64,000 nucleotides of DNA, from IMG/VR virus record IMGVR_UViG_3300031555_001586, positions 1 through 64,000 of that record, one strand, 5' to 3'. A model generated the notes under the pieces. That model was not told the DNA's origin. It made no database searches and saw nothing but the letters and a program-made list of their open reading frames with translations. The stretch's first letter is position 1. The number at the start of each line of letters is the position of its first letter. The position numbers were made by a program, and so were the translations under genes. Positions 4,846-37,337 of this stretch are shown piece by piece. The DNA comes from a virus (lineage: Duplodnaviria > Caudoviricetes).

Positions 4846-5925
4846 TCATGCAGTTGTCAACACATTTTCTTCACTTTTGAAAAATTCTTTATAACTTTCC
4901 TCAAGAGCTTCGTGTCTCGCCATGATAGCTGCGTTTCTTGCAACGCCTCCTGTACTTGCCTCCATATACTTGGTATAAACTTCCGTATCATTTTCAGTTT
5001 TGAAGAAGTTTACAAGCCACTCAGCCATCATAGATTCATTGATATTACTTTCCATGCTATGCTTAATAAATGGTGCAAGAGACACTAAATGAGTCTCAGT
5101 ATAAATCTTTTTAGCAACGTCCTTCTCACGATTACTAATCAATTCATCATGCGCACCAACAACATAGTCAAACACTTTAGCGAGTTCAAGTTTTTCCGCA
5201 TCAGAGATTTTGGTTTGTTCGATTAAAGGATTCAATTCTTTAGAAGCAAAAGAAATATTATCAATGTCCTTATTTAGCATCATCCACACTTTCAAAGAAA
5301 TAATGGCTTGATTCTTAGCTTGACGAGATTTTTCCGTAAGCATTTGATTAAACAGCTCATGTTCTCCAATGCTTAACAATCCCTCAATATCTTTGGAAGA
5401 AGCAAGAGAACGAGCCTTTGGAGAAAGAGGTCTGCCATTATTCAATTTAAGGAATAAAGTTCTTTCTTCTTCTAATGTGAGATTATCAAAGTATACAATG
5501 TTAAAAGTAGCAGTATTTAATATGTCCTGCAAGCCCTCTGGAAGCTCTGAGAACTTCATTCCGCTTATATCTAATGTAACTTCTTCATTCAATTCTTCAT
5601 CGAAATAAATCACTGGAAACAGGTCAGACAGCGCAAATTCATCATTCAAATATTCCTTTATAGTTGAAAGTCTTTGCTTACCATCGACCACAAAATATTT
5701 GTTATTGTTTTTATTTCCGTCTGGGTCAATCTTGCGACTTGCAAACATTTGAGGAACTGGGTAATTTGAGATTATAGACTCAATTAAATTAGATTTCTTT
5801 GCTCTATCCCATACCTTCGGTCTTTGGATGATATGTTCAAAATCAATTTTTCCATTCTTAACCATACTGGATATTTGCTTCGCAGACCAACTAATATTAG
5901 CTTTCTGTAGTGCCATTATAAACAA
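4846..5925 (-). CDS. DUF262 (ParB/Srx-like, GmrS-type) domain protein
   Basis: QRPKVW, LIESII.NYPVP, VVDGKQRLSTI and F.KLNNGRPLS motifs. Confidence 0.8.
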   Translation of the reverse strand: MFIMALQKANISWSAKQISSMVKNGKIDFEHIIQRPKVWDRAKKSNLIESIISNYPVPQMFASRKIDPDGNKNNNKYFVVDGKQRLSTIKEYLNDEFALSDLFPVIYFDEELNEEVTLDISGMKFSELPEGLQDILNTATFNIVYFDNLTLEEERTLFLKLNNGRPLSPKARSLASSKDIEGLLSIGEHELFNQMLTEKSRQAKNQAIISLKVWMMLNKDIDNISFASKELNPLIEQTKISDAEKLELAKVFDYVVGAHDELISNREKDVAKKIYTETHLVSLAPFIKHSMESNINESMMAEWLVNFFKTENDTEVYTKYMEASTGGVARNAAIMARHEALEESYKEFFKSEENVLTTA

Positions 5926-12843: not shown

Positions 12844-13704
12844 TTAAGAAACAGTAGGTACTTCCATGCCAAGAATATATTTCATTGCCTTTTCAGCCTT
12901 GCCACTTGCAGATACAATAAAACGATTGTCGTTTCTCAAAACCTTTAACCAACTCTGGATATATGCAGCAGAATTTTTAAAAGTTTTAGAAGTTTCAATT
13001 CCAACATGATTCATAAGGAACGCCGAACCAATTTCGGCAATCAATTCTTCCTTGCTGTAATCCTCAGAACCAAAACCAGCAAGTTTAACACCGCTATCCA
13101 ATCTGCCAAGTCTGTCTCTGTGCCCTGTGCTGTGAATCATTTCATGGAACAGCGTACTATAAAACTCAGCGATATCCTTATACTGTTCCTTGCAAGGGAC
13201 TTGAATGTAATCCATCATAGGACTATAGAAAGCATCATTGCTTACCACTTCTTTGATAAGAATGTTTTCTCTTTCCTTGTAATTGTTCTTAATCTTCTCT
13301 GCTTCTTCGATAGGCTCATGGTTAATAGGTTTAATATCTTTAGGCTCGATACCATCTACCTGTGACACATGAAATACATTAATATATTTCAAAAGAGGAA
13401 TAGATTTCTTTTCCACTTTGCCATTCTTAACTTCTTCTGTCTGAAAAATCTTCCAGAACACTACGATTTCAGATTTTTCACCCTTGCGAACCTTACCACC
13501 CAAATCGCTCCACTGTTTGTAAGTAGCGTATTCACCTTCATGCTTCAAAAGCATCTGATTCAAAAGGGAATATGGCTTCTTGCTTACTCTATTGTAAGCG
13601 CCACTTGCTACACCGCTCCAAGGCTTAGACCAAGGAATGACACCATTTTCCAACTGCTCAATAATTCTGTTTGTTACCTCTTCATAGATATTAAACTTTG
13701 CCAT
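12844..13704 (-). CDS. ardC: ArdC-family ssDNA-binding antirestriction protein (DUF1738 plus zincin-like domain)
   Basis: IPWSKPW, YATYKQW..LGGKVRKGEK, FHEMIHSTGH and YSKEELIAEIGSAFL. Confidence 0.9.
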   Translation of the reverse strand: MAKFNIYEEVTNRIIEQLENGVIPWSKPWSGVASGAYNRVSKKPYSLLNQMLLKHEGEYATYKQWSDLGGKVRKGEKSEIVVFWKIFQTEEVKNGKVEKKSIPLLKYINVFHVSQVDGIEPKDIKPINHEPIEEAEKIKNNYKERENILIKEVVSNDAFYSPMMDYIQVPCKEQYKDIAEFYSTLFHEMIHSTGHRDRLGRLDSGVKLAGFGSEDYSKEELIAEIGSAFLMNHVGIETSKTFKNSAAYIQSWLKVLRNDNRFIVSASGKAEKAMKYILGMEVPTVS

Positions 13705-13940
13705 GATGCTTACTTCCTTTCTTTGATGTGTCGTGTTGTTTATTTCTTTTCTTTACACCCATATTATAGCATATGTTTCATGGTTTGTCAAGTAGTTTAT
13801 TGAAAATTCTTAAAATATTTTTCAGAAGTATAACTTTGTATATTATACCATTTGTATAATATACCGATTTTGATATTCTGTATAAAATACCACTGAAAAA
13901 AATAAAAAGCGGAGAAGATTAAATCTTCTCCGCTCGATTA

Positions 13941-19764: not shown

Positions 19765-20028
19765 TTATTTAATTCCTTGTTTTTCTGTTACTTCTCCACT
19801 TTCCATATCGCATACTAGAATAACAATTTTCCCATTACGTTCAAATTTCCATTTGTTGATTGCTGGATTCACATACCATTCATCAAAATCAGATTCTCCA
19901 TAATGTTTTTTATAATATTTGTTTAAACGGCTGTTTAGTTGTTTCTCTGTTAATGCTTTCATTTTTATCTTCTCCTTGTTTTTGTTGTTGTTTATTTCCT
20001 TTACAATTATATTATAGCATATATTCAC
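19765..20028 (-). CDS. hypothetical phage protein
   Basis: True start is probably MKALTEK after SD AAGGAG. Confidence 0.6.
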   Translation of the reverse strand: MNICYNIIVKEINNNKNKEKIKMKALTEKQLNSRLNKYYKKHYGESDFDEWYVNPAINKWKFERNGKIVILVCDMESGEVTEKQGIK

Positions 20029-20467: not shown

Positions 20468-20675
20468 AGTGATTACTTCCTTTCAGTATTATGTTGTTGT
20501 CCTTATTGACACTGATATTATATCATATAAAAACATAGTTGTCAAGTACCTTTTATGAATTTTCTGTAAACAAATTATAGATATGATTTTGTATATTATA
20601 CCGAGCGGTAATTATATTACTGTATATTATACGAAAACGTGCCGTCTGGTATTTTGGTATATTATACGAACGTAT

Positions 20676-20822
20676 AAAAAAAAGAGTGGTGAATTTCTTC
20701 ACCACTCAAAAAACAAACAGCATATTATTTTATCCGAACTATCACAACAACAACAACATAACTATGCTTTCGCATAGACAACAACAAAAGAAAGGAAAAA
20801 GTTGTATGCTGTTTGTTTTATT
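20676..20822 (-). ncRNA. putative ~145-nt small RNA (anti-SD / anti-leader)
   Basis: Consensus promoter (-35 at 20852-57, -10 at 20829-34) and intrinsic terminator (20676-20707) with no SD-led ORF between; 15-bp closing stem and a GAAA tetraloop hairpin. Confidence 0.6.
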
Positions 20823-20876
20823 ACCTAGATTATAGCATATATTTTCCTGTTTGTCAAGTACCTTTTTTAATTATTT

Positions 20877-21167
20877 TTATTTTCCTTCAAATGTGCTATC
20901 ACCATTAAATCTAGGAAGAAAATGATGAAATTCCGTTGCTGGAAACTTGCTGCGGTCAATATTATTTACAATTCCTACAATATCATGTGCAAAATTAAAA
21001 TTGTCTGCGTTCAGCCAATCTTCCAAGCGCATATTAAAAGTATTGTCTGCGCTCTCAATGTCCATTAGTAATGTGGAGCGCTGTCCATGATAGATTCCAA
21101 GTTCTTCTGCTCTCTCTGCAATCTTAACATACATCATAAAACGTTCTTTGGTTTTCATTTTGTCCAC
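20877..21167 (-). CDS. hypothetical protein (DUF6874-like)
   Basis: LLMDIE...RLEDWLNAD.FNFAHDIVGI...FLPRF pattern. Confidence 0.6.
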   Translation of the reverse strand: MDKMKTKERFMMYVKIAERAEELGIYHGQRSTLLMDIESADNTFNMRLEDWLNADNFNFAHDIVGIVNNIDRSKFPATEFHHFLPRFNGDSTFEGK

Positions 21168-21365
21168 CTCATTTGTATTTTGTTTGTTCTGTTCTTTATG
21201 GTTCTATTATAACATGTATTTTCTATTTGTCAAGTAGTTATTTATATAATTTTGATTTTATTTCCATGAAGTATATTATACCAAATTGTATATTATACTG
21301 GCCTGTATATTATACGCAGCTATATAAAATAAAGGTGGAGAATTTTCTCCACCTCTTTATATTTA

Positions 21366-21755
21366 TTAAATGAATAGCGTTCTTACTTCGTATTCTTCGA
21401 AAGTCTTTTTGTTAAACAGTTCAATAACCGTTTCAAGTTCTTCCGTCACAATTTCCATCTGCTTTTCGTTTAGTGCGATTGTGTTTCCTTCTTCGTCGTG
21501 GCTTGCAAAGATACAATTACCATAGACGACATCAAGAATTTTTCCTTCTTTCTTGTCTACAATCGCAATCTCTGGCTTTAGGCCATCAATAAATTTTCCT
21601 TCGTCATTGATAATTGTATCAATTCCATTGTTTCGGAATGTTTCGCCAAGATAGGGAATTTCGATATAACCTCCCACAATCTTCTGCAATTCTTCCAGTG
21701 TGTTATTAATTTCTTTTGCTTCCAATTTTCCATTGCTAAGAGTTAAAACTTTCAT
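21366..21755 (-). CDS. DUF3846-domain protein
   Basis: NTLEELQKIVGGYIE and IINDEGK motifs. Confidence 0.75.
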   Translation of the reverse strand: MKVLTLSNGKLEAKEINNTLEELQKIVGGYIEIPYLGETFRNNGIDTIINDEGKFIDGLKPEIAIVDKKEGKILDVVYGNCIFASHDEEGNTIALNEKQMEIVTEELETVIELFNKKTFEEYEVRTLFI

Positions 21756-21960
21756 TTTTAATCTTCCTTTCTTTGTGTGTTGTATTGCTTACAAGTACAT
21801 TATATCATATTTTAGTCATTTGTCAAGTAGTTATTTTAATATTCTTTCAAGATTCTTCCTATTATTTGTATAATATACTACTGGTATATTGTTTGTATAA
21901 TATACTTGATAGTATAAAAAAGACAGTGGATATTTTTCCACTGTCTTGAATAATGTTAGT

Positions 21961-22137: not shown

Positions 22138-22809
22138 GTTTTATACCTCATTAAAATCGTTTTTATGTATTATGCGACTTCAATAATAATTTTTCCGTTG
22201 TTCGTCCATACTCCAATTACATCAACATCAAAGAACGGGCACATAACTTTTTTCCCTTCAAACATTGTTCTATGGTTATTATAGTCTGCAATTCTTATAA
22301 CTTCCCCACCATCAATAACAGATAGAAACATAGATAAATTTATTTTCATAAAATTTCCTCCATAAAATGTTCTTTTATGTGTTAGTTTACTTTCCATTTT
22401 TCAATATATGGCTCAGTAGTTTTCCAATATTTATCATTGTTCAATTTTTCCAATTCTTCTTTTGCTTTCTTTTCTGATGAAAATATTTTATGTATTCCTT
22501 CATCACCATAACAACCAGCTATAATTACATATACATATTTCATATATTTTTACCTCTTGAAATTGCTTTTTAATTTATTGTCGTGTTGTTTTTTATCTGT
22601 GGATATTATATCACAATAATATTAGTTTGTCAAGTAGTTTTTATAAAATTCTTGAAATTTTCCACAGGTATTTTCCGTATAATATACCTGTGGTATGTAG
22701 ATTTGTATAATACGTTTTCCGTATAATATACGAATACGTCTTGCGTATATTATACCGTAAGATATAAAAGTAAGACGGTGAATTTCTCCACCGTCTATAA
22801 CTTTAATTG

Positions 22810-23923: not shown

Positions 23924-24205
23924 TTAGTTATCAATGATTTCTAAGCTATCCCACCAAGCTTTACCGCCACCAGAAATTCCATAATAGTCAATAAAGGAAT
24001 TTATATGCCTCATAGTAGTTGCGCTGTAGCCCCACCAAAGTCTCTGGAATTGTCCATTGACGATTCTTGCTACAATGGTGTTATAACTTTTTAGTTCGAT
24101 TATTCCGTTATCGTGCTCGATTGCTACGGCCTTATTATAGAAAGATTTTCTTCCGTCAATAGGGGAAAGAGTAATAATTTTAGGGGTGTTGTTAGCGTGT
24201 TTCAT
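23924..24205 (-). CDS. conserved phage hypothetical protein
   Basis: KSFYNKA, LKSYNTIVA and SATTMRHINSF; SD AGAAAGGA. Confidence 0.7.
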   Translation of the reverse strand: MKHANNTPKIITLSPIDGRKSFYNKAVAIEHDNGIIELKSYNTIVARIVNGQFQRLWWGYSATTMRHINSFIDYYGISGGGKAWWDSLEIIDN

Positions 24206-24482
24206 GGTGATTTTCCTTTCTTTGGTGTTTGTGTGTTGTTTTGTTTTGTTGTAGTTATTATAACATAATTTTATTTGTTTGTCAAGTAGTTTATGGAATA
24301 TTTATGGAATATTTTTGTTATTTTGATAATTATTTTTAGAAGTGGTGTGGAGGTGGTATGGGGTGTGTGGTGTGGTATGTGTATATTATACGGTTATTTA
24401 GTAGTTTGATATATGTATAATATACTATTGATATAAAAATAAAAAAGAGTGGAACTTGCTCCACTCTTTATATATTTAATTG

Positions 24483-25481: not shown

Positions 25482-25734
25482 TATATTATACCGCTCTTTT
25501 ATTTTGGTATATTATACCGTTGGTATATCTTTTGGTATAATATACGATTCCGTATATTATACCTGCGGTATACTCCATTTTATATTTGGTATATTATACC
25601 GCTTTATTTTCTGGCATATTATACCGCTTTAGTTTCTGGTATATTATACCGCTTTAGTTGTGTCTGAAAACACAAAAAAAGAGGATGGAATTTCTTCCAC
25701 CCTCTAATACCTATAACATTATTTGTTTATCTTT

Positions 25735-29496: not shown

Positions 29497-30198
29497 TTAT
29501 AAAGCATAGTCGATAAATACGGCCTTGTAATATCCCTTGTTGTAATCAAAGATTACGCCGGAGTTACCGCCGTTATGCATCGCATCACGCCAGCCCTGTT
29601 TTTTAGACATTCTAGCAAGTTTTTGAAGTCTTTCGTCGGCATCTTCACCGACATATCCATGTTCACGGTTCAAACGTTCGGCCTTGCGACATGCGCTATA
29701 TGCATCGGATACATAAACGGCCTTTTGTGCAATAATTACCACATTGTTTTGCATTGTCTCAGAAGTTGCGGTAACCTTATCAGATTTGCTAGTAAAATAC
29801 TTAAGAATCGGACAAAGTAAATCGGCGTATTCAGTTTCTGCGAACTCTACCCAACAATTGATTTCGTCAACCAACTGATTACCAGTGCATTTGGCGTGTT
29901 CACCATGGACATTAGGTACATAACCGCCAGTTTTATGACGCTTAATAACGATATACTTAAAAGCGTCACCCTCATGATTAACTAGGTGGCAAGTCTTAGT
30001 TGCGCCATGCTCACAGCTCCAATCATCACGGCTATACAGCTCGTTAATACGCCACTGGTCGTAAACCATGCCACGATTAGAGTTGGTATTGCAAGCAATC
30101 AACCATTCGATTAACGCACGATGGTTGTGCTTCTTTGCCTTTGCCATAGCGGACTGAATAGCTTTAGTTTCAGGGTTCTTTCTAGTTGTCATTGTCAT
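29497..30198 (-). CDS. protein kinase-like enzyme (minimal ePK-like fold)
   Basis: HGATKTC (P-loop), IVIKR (beta3 Lys), VDEINCW (alphaC Glu), DAMHNGGN (catalytic loop) and IDY (DFG-like). Confidence 0.65.
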   Translation of the reverse strand: MTMTTRKNPETKAIQSAMAKAKKHNHRALIEWLIACNTNSNRGMVYDQWRINELYSRDDWSCEHGATKTCHLVNHEGDAFKYIVIKRHKTGGYVPNVHGEHAKCTGNQLVDEINCWVEFAETEYADLLCPILKYFTSKSDKVTATSETMQNNVVIIAQKAVYVSDAYSACRKAERLNREHGYVGEDADERLQKLARMSKKQGWRDAMHNGGNSGVIFDYNKGYYKAVFIDYAL

Positions 30199-30704
30199 GA
30201 TAATGCATCTCCTTTTGTTGTTGCGGTATGTTATACCGTTGTTGTTGTCTACATTATAAGCTAGTCAAAAGCTACTTGTCAACTGATATGTTGCGAGTAC
30301 AAAACGCCCACCGTTCTTGTGCAATACTGCTATATCCCTTGGAGCGAGAAACTGCCTATGACTTAGGGCGTTTAGACGGTATAGCCCGCCCTAATTAGGG
30401 CCAGACCGCTTGACTGATTGGATTTTGCTTTGCTTTGGATGTCTCAATTATAGCTCATATTTTACACTTTTCAAGATGGGAAATTGCACAAAAAAAGAGC
30501 TTTAAAAAGCCCGTTTTGACTATGGTTTTTGTATAAAATACACAAACGAAAATATGGGCTTCGGTATATTATACAAAACAGATACACTGTTTATAGCTCT
30601 GTTTTGTGCACATTGTATAATATACAAAAGGATATAGCATATTGCACAAATAATATAGTTTTGTTTTGGCTATTTTGACGATAGACAAGGGGCGGTATAA
30701 TATA

Positions 30705-36827: not shown

Positions 36828-36911
36828 GCGAATGTGATGGAATTGGTAGACATGCCAGATTAAGGTTCTGGTGGCTATGCCGTATGAGTTCAAATCTCAT
36901 CATTCGTACCA
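36828..36911 (+). tRNA. trnL: tRNA-Leu (anticodon AAG), CCA encoded
   Basis: Acceptor GCGAATG/CATTCGT, anticodon arm CCAGA-TTAAGGT-TCTGG, long variable arm, TTCAAAT T-loop. Confidence 0.9.
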
Positions 36912-37262: not shown

Positions 37263-37337
37263 GCTGGATTAGCTCAGCGGCAGAGCAATGCTCTTGTAAA
37301 GCATAGGTCGAGGTCTCGGAATCCTCATCCAGCTCCA
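37263..37337 (+). tRNA. trnT: tRNA-Thr (anticodon TGT) with atypical T-arm
   Basis: Acceptor GCTGGAT/ATCCAGC, ATGCT-CTTGTAA-AGCAT, CCA end; T-arm reads GAGGT-CTCGGAA-TCCTC. Confidence 0.75.

Follow-up and report, generated by a model that had tools for sequence, protein, structure and literature searches.

Can a phage transcription unit that carries its own expression signals and no gene act through its RNA? The question is raised by a locus at positions 20676 to 20857 of the window, the 64,000-nucleotide stretch of viral DNA analyzed here. An earlier note on this DNA had proposed that it encodes a small RNA that switches off the early genes, or host mRNAs, by imitating the anti-Shine-Dalgarno sequence of the ribosome. 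The window is part of an IMG/VR virus record of 89.7 kb, and its relatives are contigs of 150 to 167 kb. The window's terminase shares 47% identity with its counterparts in SPbeta-like Bacillus phages; the phage is uncultured, of the SPbeta-like type, and associated with gut Bacillota.

The left 31 kb is organized into about 25 leftward cassettes, each with a near-perfect promoter, a leader, one or a few small genes, and a terminator. The early leaders are A/C-rich and nearly U-free, running from (CAA)n into a purine-rich Shine-Dalgarno (SD) sequence, AAAGAAAGGAA or AAAAGGAG. The unit under study is one such early cassette without a gene. Downstream of a leftward promoter at 30447-30474 (TTGAAA-16-TATAAT), the leader (to about 30380) departs from the CAA type; it contains a GC-rich palindrome, GGCCCTAATTAGGGC, and is situated near the divergence point of the genome. 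Two plus-strand tRNA genes (36828-36908 and 37263-37334) are located at the start of the rightward (late) region. Genes of anti-defence type are present in the early part of these phage genomes: in the window, they encode an ArdC-like N-terminal domain with a metallopeptidase (12844-13704) and a GmrSD_N domain protein (4846-5925); matches of this type in relatives include an AcrIC5-family protein (L215, 1811-1993) and a Lar restriction-alleviation protein (L220, 3258-3440).

An 11-bp palindrome, GTATA[AT]TATAC, recurs through the early region. The 89.7-kb record holds 80 exact copies, all within 9.6 to 30.8 kb (window 9607-30778), for example at 20591, 20622, and 20657 and at 21271, 21288, and 21305. 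Two to six of them lie 30 to 200 bp upstream of 17 of the 25 early promoters; the promoter of the gene-less unit at 20857 has none. The palindromes are probably binding sites for a regulator of the early cassettes, and the RNA, with no palindrome upstream of its promoter, may escape whatever binds there. In relatives, a different repeated spacer motif (around AATTTTTAAAAAC) occupies the places of the palindrome (L009, 4440-4640; L010, 4440-4700; and downstream of the RNA in L087, L090, and L091). The position of the repeat array is kept among relatives, and its sequence is replaced.

Promoter, predicted transcript, and terminator of the RNA gene

The earlier note described a promoter and an intrinsic terminator enclosing a unit free of SD-led open reading frames (ORFs), and every element was located where it had been placed (on the minus strand, like all features below unless indicated otherwise). 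The sigma-A promoter (20857..20829) combines a -35 box TTGACA, a 17-nt spacer, and a TG-extended -10 box TATAAT, with 12 of 12 consensus matches. It begins 20 nt past the stop codon of the gene directly upstream (20877..21158), which encodes a DUF6874 protein (Pfam PF21779, E = 6e-27). Two genes upstream of the unit lies a DUF3846 gene (21366..21755; PF12957, E = 6e-18), and the neighbours of the unit are DUF proteins of 87 to 129 amino acids (aa). The predicted transcript of about 149 nt (20676..20824) would start 5 to 7 nt past the -10 box and end in the U tract of the terminator (20676..20707), which has a 10-bp stem (20707..20684), a GAAA loop, and U8. No terminator separates DUF6874 from the promoter, and the terminator of the unit also serves this upstream gene. 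It follows that the DUF6874 mRNA ends in the same RNA.

The transcript is predicted to fold with a free energy of -46.7 kcal/mol (z = -6.8 against 200 dinucleotide shuffles). The perfect 15-bp closing stem reported earlier, P1, is present: its 5' strand (20805..20819), which is A/C-rich and resembles an early leader, pairs as 20819-20805 with the 3' strand (20724-20710, i.e., 20710..20724). The two open arms are there as well. The 5' arm starts with a pyrimidine (CU) tract, the proposed seed (20786..20801; CUUUUUCCUUUCUUUU in the window, CUUCUUUUCUUUU in the family consensus), which a first GUU run adjoins on its 3' side (20778..20785). The 3' arm (20725..20761) consists of (GUU)4 and an A/U-rich stretch, and differs in length and sequence among homologues. 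Between the two arms, the CUAUGC-GAAA-GCAUAG hairpin with its GNRA loop (P2, 20762..20777) exists in the window as described, from 20777 to 20762, but is not shared by the family: apart from the window, only relative L091 has it (2 of 13 copies), with a different stem sequence, and it is an optional insertion.

No RNA run turned out to contain the locus. Four DNA runs from animal faeces yielded only contigs of low depth from this phage; they differ at one position, 20737, and offer no informative variation. A pile-up at 20828-20881 in the faecal DNA runs reflects cross-matching between promoters.

A conserved RNA family next to DUF6874

Relatives of the unit were collected in three ways. A synteny search through DUF6874 revealed a gene-less unit in two IMG/VR phage types, a promoter-plus-arm pattern added three more copies in metagenomes, and close DUF6874 homologues in ENA and Logan assemblies led to ten further contigs, seven of which contain a match to a covariance model (R1) built from the first seven sequences. 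In total, 13 distinct RNA copies were found, one per phage contig, scoring 88 to 134 bits in R1 (120 bits for the window copy). All other matches score below 42 bits and are terminators. The early terminators have a near-identical loop region (GAAGAAAUUC-like), common to cassettes and related phages (e.g., window 20684-20707, 25673-25720, 21331-21356, and 22773-22796), which is why the model matches them at 20 to 40 bits. No second copy was found within any one phage, the next-best model matches being gene ends with terminators.

In 12 of the 13 phages, the unit stands immediately behind the DUF3846-DUF6874 pair. In the exception, L216, it lies two genes after DUF6874 and has kept its own promoter. 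A promoter of the form TTGACA-17-TATAnT is retained in all 13 copies; among the nine copies found without the promoter pattern, two have TTGACA-17-TATAAT and seven TTGACA-17-TATAnT. The spacers flanking the unit are unrelated between phages. More distant DUF6874 phages (about 52% identity) carry a tRNA gene directly after DUF6874 in place of the small RNA (L013, 3800-3880; L014, 680-760; and L047, L052, L057-L062, L065, and L066).

Beyond these contigs, searches were negative. Among the 4,227 Rfam models, the window matched only two tRNAs at gathering score, and nothing better than E = 0.18 was obtained for 20500-21000 at a permissive E value. A blastn query of the locus against 50,697 phage records returned no match, and the L075 copy gave only promoter-like matches in the same records. 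The best DUF6874 homologue in cultured phages by tblastn (Bacillus phage 2S-4, 51% identity) is without the RNA unit. The RNA was thus absent from every cultured phage searched by blastn and tblastn, and the family is known only from metagenomes. Scanning one genome for each prokaryote species with a pattern gave 0 matches (DUF6874 homologues there reach at most 66% identity), and a relaxed pattern matched at least 117 stretches of IMG/VR, with no family member in the 77 new loci searched with the model. Earlier pattern matches (L076-L086) were discarded as coding antisense or giant-virus DNA.

Covariation of the closing stem and the terminator

The earlier note had named covariation in relatives as a check, and the closing stem, 14 to 15 bp across the family, does covary in the 13 sequences. 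In the 13-sequence alignment, which was fitted to model R1, standard pairs fill 98.1% of the cells, compared to 37 to 48% when the 3' partners are slid by 1 to 3 columns. Changes on both sides occur in 11 of 24 pairs, and none of 500 column shuffles reached the observed covariation. For P1, double changes are seen in 5 of 14 pairs and 96.6% of the cells pair; for the terminator, these values are 6 of 10 pairs and 100%. Together with the 13 conserved phage copies, the covarying stem bears out the claim of a stand-alone gene for a noncoding RNA.

On the same alignment, RNAalifold prefers to pair the 5' strand of the stem with the GUU run. This arrangement shows no compensatory changes and was dropped as the main fold; P1 was retained because it alone explains the covarying apical positions. 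The pairing with the GUU run may nevertheless be a real alternative conformer, as the 5' strand of P1 itself looks like a leader, and the 3' strand like the inverse of one.

A near-invariant pyrimidine tract and the question of anti-SD mimicry

The open tract is better conserved than the stem that closes it. The sequence CUUCUUUUCUUUU is identical in 11 of 13 copies, the exceptions being the window (CUUUUUCCUUUCUUUU) and L078 (UUCUCUUUUCUUUU), and the stem and the 3' arm vary. The tract is predicted to be unpaired, with P = 0.93 in the window and 0.68 to 0.80 in five homologues. The GUU repeats that follow it differ in number from copy to copy and are sometimes interrupted. Two otherwise near-identical contigs of the same phage type from different samples (L075, 4216-4240, and L088) differ by exactly one GTT unit, which suggests replication slippage and weak constraint on the number of repeats.

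Mimicry of the 16S anti-SD sequence, as proposed earlier, does not extend to the family. The CC that gives CCUUUCU is peculiar to the window; 11 of the 13 copies have no CC and can reach GGAG solely through a G-U pair. A mimic would be expected to hold CCUCC, or at least CCU, in its open tract; in the window, CCUUUCU is the only sequence shared with the 16S tail.

Complementarity of the open arm to early leaders

The five perfect complementarities listed in the earlier note were all verified. The predicted target sites are a 13-nt perfect complement over the SD of a 93-aa gene (site 24211..24223, gene 23924-24205); 12 nt in the leader of a 233-aa gene (30212..30223, gene 29497-30198; cofolding ddG, -9.0); 12 nt of CAA repeats in the leader of the gene starting at 19962 (19980..19991; ddG, -10.3); 11 nt at the SD of the ArdC-like gene (13714..13724, gene 12844-13704; ddG, -13.0); and the DUF3846 leader (AAAGAAAGGAAGA, over the SD), where 13 bp including one G-U would form with the seed at 21764..21776, 11 nt of them perfect at 21774-21764. 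Across the 89.7-kb record, there are 17 sense-strand matches of at least 11 nt, 13 of which fall in early leaders; the other strand has 4.

This complementarity is low in complexity, setting U/C against purines and GUU against CAA, and it exceeds what composition provides, as judged by shuffles, by the contrast between early and late genes, and by the position of the duplexes. Against promoter-proximal leaders, the 30-nt 5' arm reaches z values of -3.2 to -6.6 in six phages (dinucleotide shuffles). Of the window's 21 promoter-proximal leaders, 13 pair at -18 kcal/mol or lower, where shuffled arms would be expected to reach 1.6 and the reversed arm reaches 3. The order of the tracts, pyrimidine tract and then GUU, therefore matters: the arm is a colinear antisense image of leaders built as (CAA)n followed by the SD. 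The shut-off of the whole early class proposed in the earlier note goes further than these data: some promoter-proximal leaders of the window, including that of DUF6874, pair poorly with the arm. When the whole 80-nt loop is set against all 62 early start sites, it performs no better than shuffled loops (z = -0.5), which, next to the positive result for the 30-nt arm, places the signal in the 5' arm and the promoter-proximal leaders.

Early and late genes were compared by cofolding the full-length RNA, a calculation in which opening its own structure carries a cost. Early 5' ends have a mean ddG of -6.0, as against -1.0 at late start sites (Mann-Whitney p = 6e-6). Moreover, all 44 strong duplexes in the six phages cover positions -16 to -5.

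Predicted targets and relatives without the RNA

The DUF3846 leader emerges from the models as the most consistent predicted target. With the seed alone, its start site heads a list of 10 to 23 in 9 of 12 phages and takes second or third place in the others. When the seed is confined strictly to the loop, it comes out best, alone or in a tie, in 7 of 12, with margins over other leaders of 0.1 to 2 kcal/mol, and a recurring set of other early leaders ranks close behind. The DUF3846 leader variants AAAAGAAAAGGAG and AAAGAAAGGAAG each pair fully with the invariant tract; they differ solely at positions facing a U, with G-U replacing A-U. These data do not demonstrate that arm and targets have co-evolved, because arms and leaders show no cognate preference at the class level (whichever of the three arm classes a leader set belongs to, the consensus arm is its best binder) and the cognate-versus-noncognate matrix for DUF3846, which favours cognate pairs (p = 0.05), covers three lineages.

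A second comparison involves three relatives that keep the DUF3846-DUF6874 pair and have no RNA in the 10 kb searched of each (L215, L217, and L218). They are also without leaders of this type. Consensus promoters number 0 to 5 per 10 kb in these relatives and 9 to 17 in RNA carriers. Start sites pairing at -18 kcal/mol or lower with the consensus arm make up 0 to 6% and 14 to 45%, respectively (p = 3e-8, kinship ignored). The DUF3846 leaders of the RNA-less relatives have no purine tract and reach -7.6 to -9.9 kcal/mol with the arm, against -15 to -21 kcal/mol in carriers. The RNA and the leader type thus co-occur, as a correlation across related genomes that is confounded by phylogeny.

Proposed base pairing with early leaders and alternative explanations

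We favour, at about even confidence, the explanation that the unit encodes a small RNA (sRNA) that acts in trans by base pairing, covers the SDs of a subset of early leaders, and lowers their translation. Two routes would lead to the RNA: initiation at its own sigma-A promoter, and transcription of DUF6874, whose mRNA ends in it. The covarying 14- to 15-bp stem would close it and display the open 5' arm between its strands. In the infected cell, the arm would pair with a subset of early leaders at about -35 to -7 and mask the SD, upon which translation of the paired leaders would fall, possibly with exposure to RNase III as well. DUF3846 would be foremost among the repressed leaders.

Several observations weigh against this base-pairing model. 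The complementarity is of low complexity, and the whole loop is unremarkable against all early start sites. Compensatory co-variation of arm and leaders was not found, the margins of DUF3846 over other leaders are small, and RNAalifold favours the 5' stem strand paired with the GUU run. The RNA also has the same class of promoter as its proposed targets, which leaves the timing of repression unexplained.

A broader form of the model is possible, and we hold it only tentatively: a single RNA would serve as a class-wide "anti-leader" that titrates or silences many separately transcribed early cassettes at once, as an RNA counterpart of T4 RegA/RegB. Its promoter, among the few early promoters without palindrome arrays, could be regulated apart from those of the targets, and the RNA might, for example, stay on in lysogens and add a second tier of immunity.

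Rather unlikely, yet of real weight given that the seed is invariant while the leaders vary, is that the RNA is a decoy or scaffold for a protein and that its resemblance to an anti-leader is secondary. Candidate partners are Hfq, a cold-shock-domain protein, ribosomal protein S1, or an early phage protein. An invariant tract beside varying mRNA targets fits a protein-binding site, as does the failure to find arm-target covariation. GUU copy number varies freely, as it would in a multivalent site, and a terminator with a U tail is a typical Hfq module. However, there is no known protein motif such as GGA or ARN. The tract order mirrors the leaders, and the drop from 13 leaders to 3 upon reversal of the arm is unexpected for a site driven by composition. 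The co-occurrence of the RNA with one leader type also speaks for pairing over protein binding.

We regard it as unlikely that the same base pairing is directed at host mRNAs with A/G-rich extended SDs, for host shut-off or reprogramming, and that pairing with phage leaders is incidental or buffered by abundance. The seed can pair with any AAAGGAG-type SD that follows A-rich sequence, and phage sRNAs acting on host genes are known, e.g., lambda LPR1/PreS (bioRxiv 10.1101/2024.10.31.621285). Nevertheless, the additional GUU-to-CAA complementarity is specific to the phage's own leaders, and the RNA is missing from relatives without such leaders.

Still less probable is the absence of any function in trans, the unit being an inverted leader remnant that serves as 3' untranslated region (UTR) or terminator of DUF6874, or neutral DNA with an inverted repeat homogenized at the DNA level. 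Read-through from DUF6874, which has no terminator of its own, would be accommodated by this explanation, as would a P1 stem with one leader-like strand and its inverse. It is at odds with the full consensus promoter in all 13 copies, the retention of that promoter in L216 at a distance of two genes from DUF6874, a single-stranded tract more conserved than the stem, and the unrelated flanking spacers.

Finally, a micro-protein, encoded by the plus-strand 9-codon ORF or as a Leu/Val-rich peptide by the GUU run, is scarcely credible as the expressed product: the window does hold an AAGGA-led micro-ORF on the plus strand and ATG micro-ORFs on the minus strand, but we count no SD before these ORFs, and frames and peptides across the GUU run vary between copies. 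In five relatives, neither strand has an SD-led or ATG ORF of at least 5 codons, and the micro-ORFs of the window are therefore not conserved. This includes the plus-strand ORF that the earlier note had offered as a possible refutation and that has no counterpart in these relatives; its claim that the sense strand is free of SD-led ORFs was upheld.

Implications

To our knowledge, understanding of trans-acting sRNAs encoded by phages is limited to a few cases, hardly any of them from phages that infect Gram-positive bacteria of the gut. Here, many stand-alone early cassettes with an unusual U-free leader, and one RNA that mirrors this leader, present a testable logic. If the pairing is real, one small gene would co-ordinate dozens of independent early transcripts after transcription, including that of the anti-restriction protein ArdC, and would provide a portable leader/anti-leader pair for synthetic control in Bacillota. 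If the RNA is a protein decoy instead, the invariant pyrimidine tract points to an RNA-binding partner.

Comparison with known RNA and protein regulators

An SD-occluding, base-pairing sRNA is an already known kind of regulator; the RNA family itself is absent from Rfam. Several classes were considered and rejected. A 6S RNA is contradicted by the lack of an Rfam match and by a large loop that is U/G/C-rich and one-sided, not a two-sided bubble. A type I antitoxin sRNA would call for a conserved ORF of a small hydrophobic toxin with which it pairs, and none was found in or beside the unit; a retron or a Y-RNA-like element would call for a reverse transcriptase or Ro gene, and neither lies nearby. 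No model match was obtained for any of these. Membership of the RsaE/RoxS group was set aside on the same ground, together with the lack of a CCC motif.

T4 RegB cleaves SDs at GGAG, and RegA is a competitor of the ribosome. Together, they are described as silencing many early phage mRNAs posttranscriptionally at translation initiation regions (PMC3014915). These regulators are proteins; the present RNA would reach the same proposed outcome by other means.

In its gene arrangement, the unit recalls MicL and DapZ, which are presented as sRNAs embedded in 3' UTRs, with their own promoter near the stop codon and a terminator common to the upstream gene (PMC9438474). The present unit likewise has its own promoter and shares its terminator with an upstream coding gene. 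Unlike MicL and DapZ, which are enterobacterial and Hfq-dependent, it has its promoter just after the stop codon, and in L216 it is detached from DUF6874.

The earlier note knew of no described phage regulator of this type. A precedent exists: c4 RNA, from phages P1 and P7, acts as an antisense RNA against a ribosome-binding site, its loop sequences pairing in trans with the icd-ant ribosome-binding region and thereby blocking translation (PMC12197685). Both are small, structured, phage-encoded RNAs with actual or proposed pairing at a ribosome-binding region. However, c4 is processed from the operon of its single target and serves immunity, whereas the present RNA comes with a promoter and terminator of its own, folds differently, and has potentially many targets and a host among the Bacillota. 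It does not match the Rfam C4 model.

In its proposed mode of action, the RNA also resembles chromosomal sRNAs of Bacillota, for which C- or U-rich seeds directed against SDs are described as the usual mode, RsaE being an example (PMC6158497). In the accounts of RsaE/RoxS and IsrR, unpaired pyrimidine-rich motifs pair with the G-rich SDs of several mRNAs (PMC6158497, PMC9410917). The present RNA resembles them as a stand-alone unit with an intrinsic terminator and an unpaired pyrimidine-rich motif. RsaE/RoxS and IsrR are chromosomal stress regulators that carry CCC motifs in hairpin loops. In contrast to RsaE/RoxS, the present RNA exposes a U-rich tract with isolated C residues, followed by GUU repeats, within one large closed loop; it is borne by a phage, in whose own early leaders its best matches lie.
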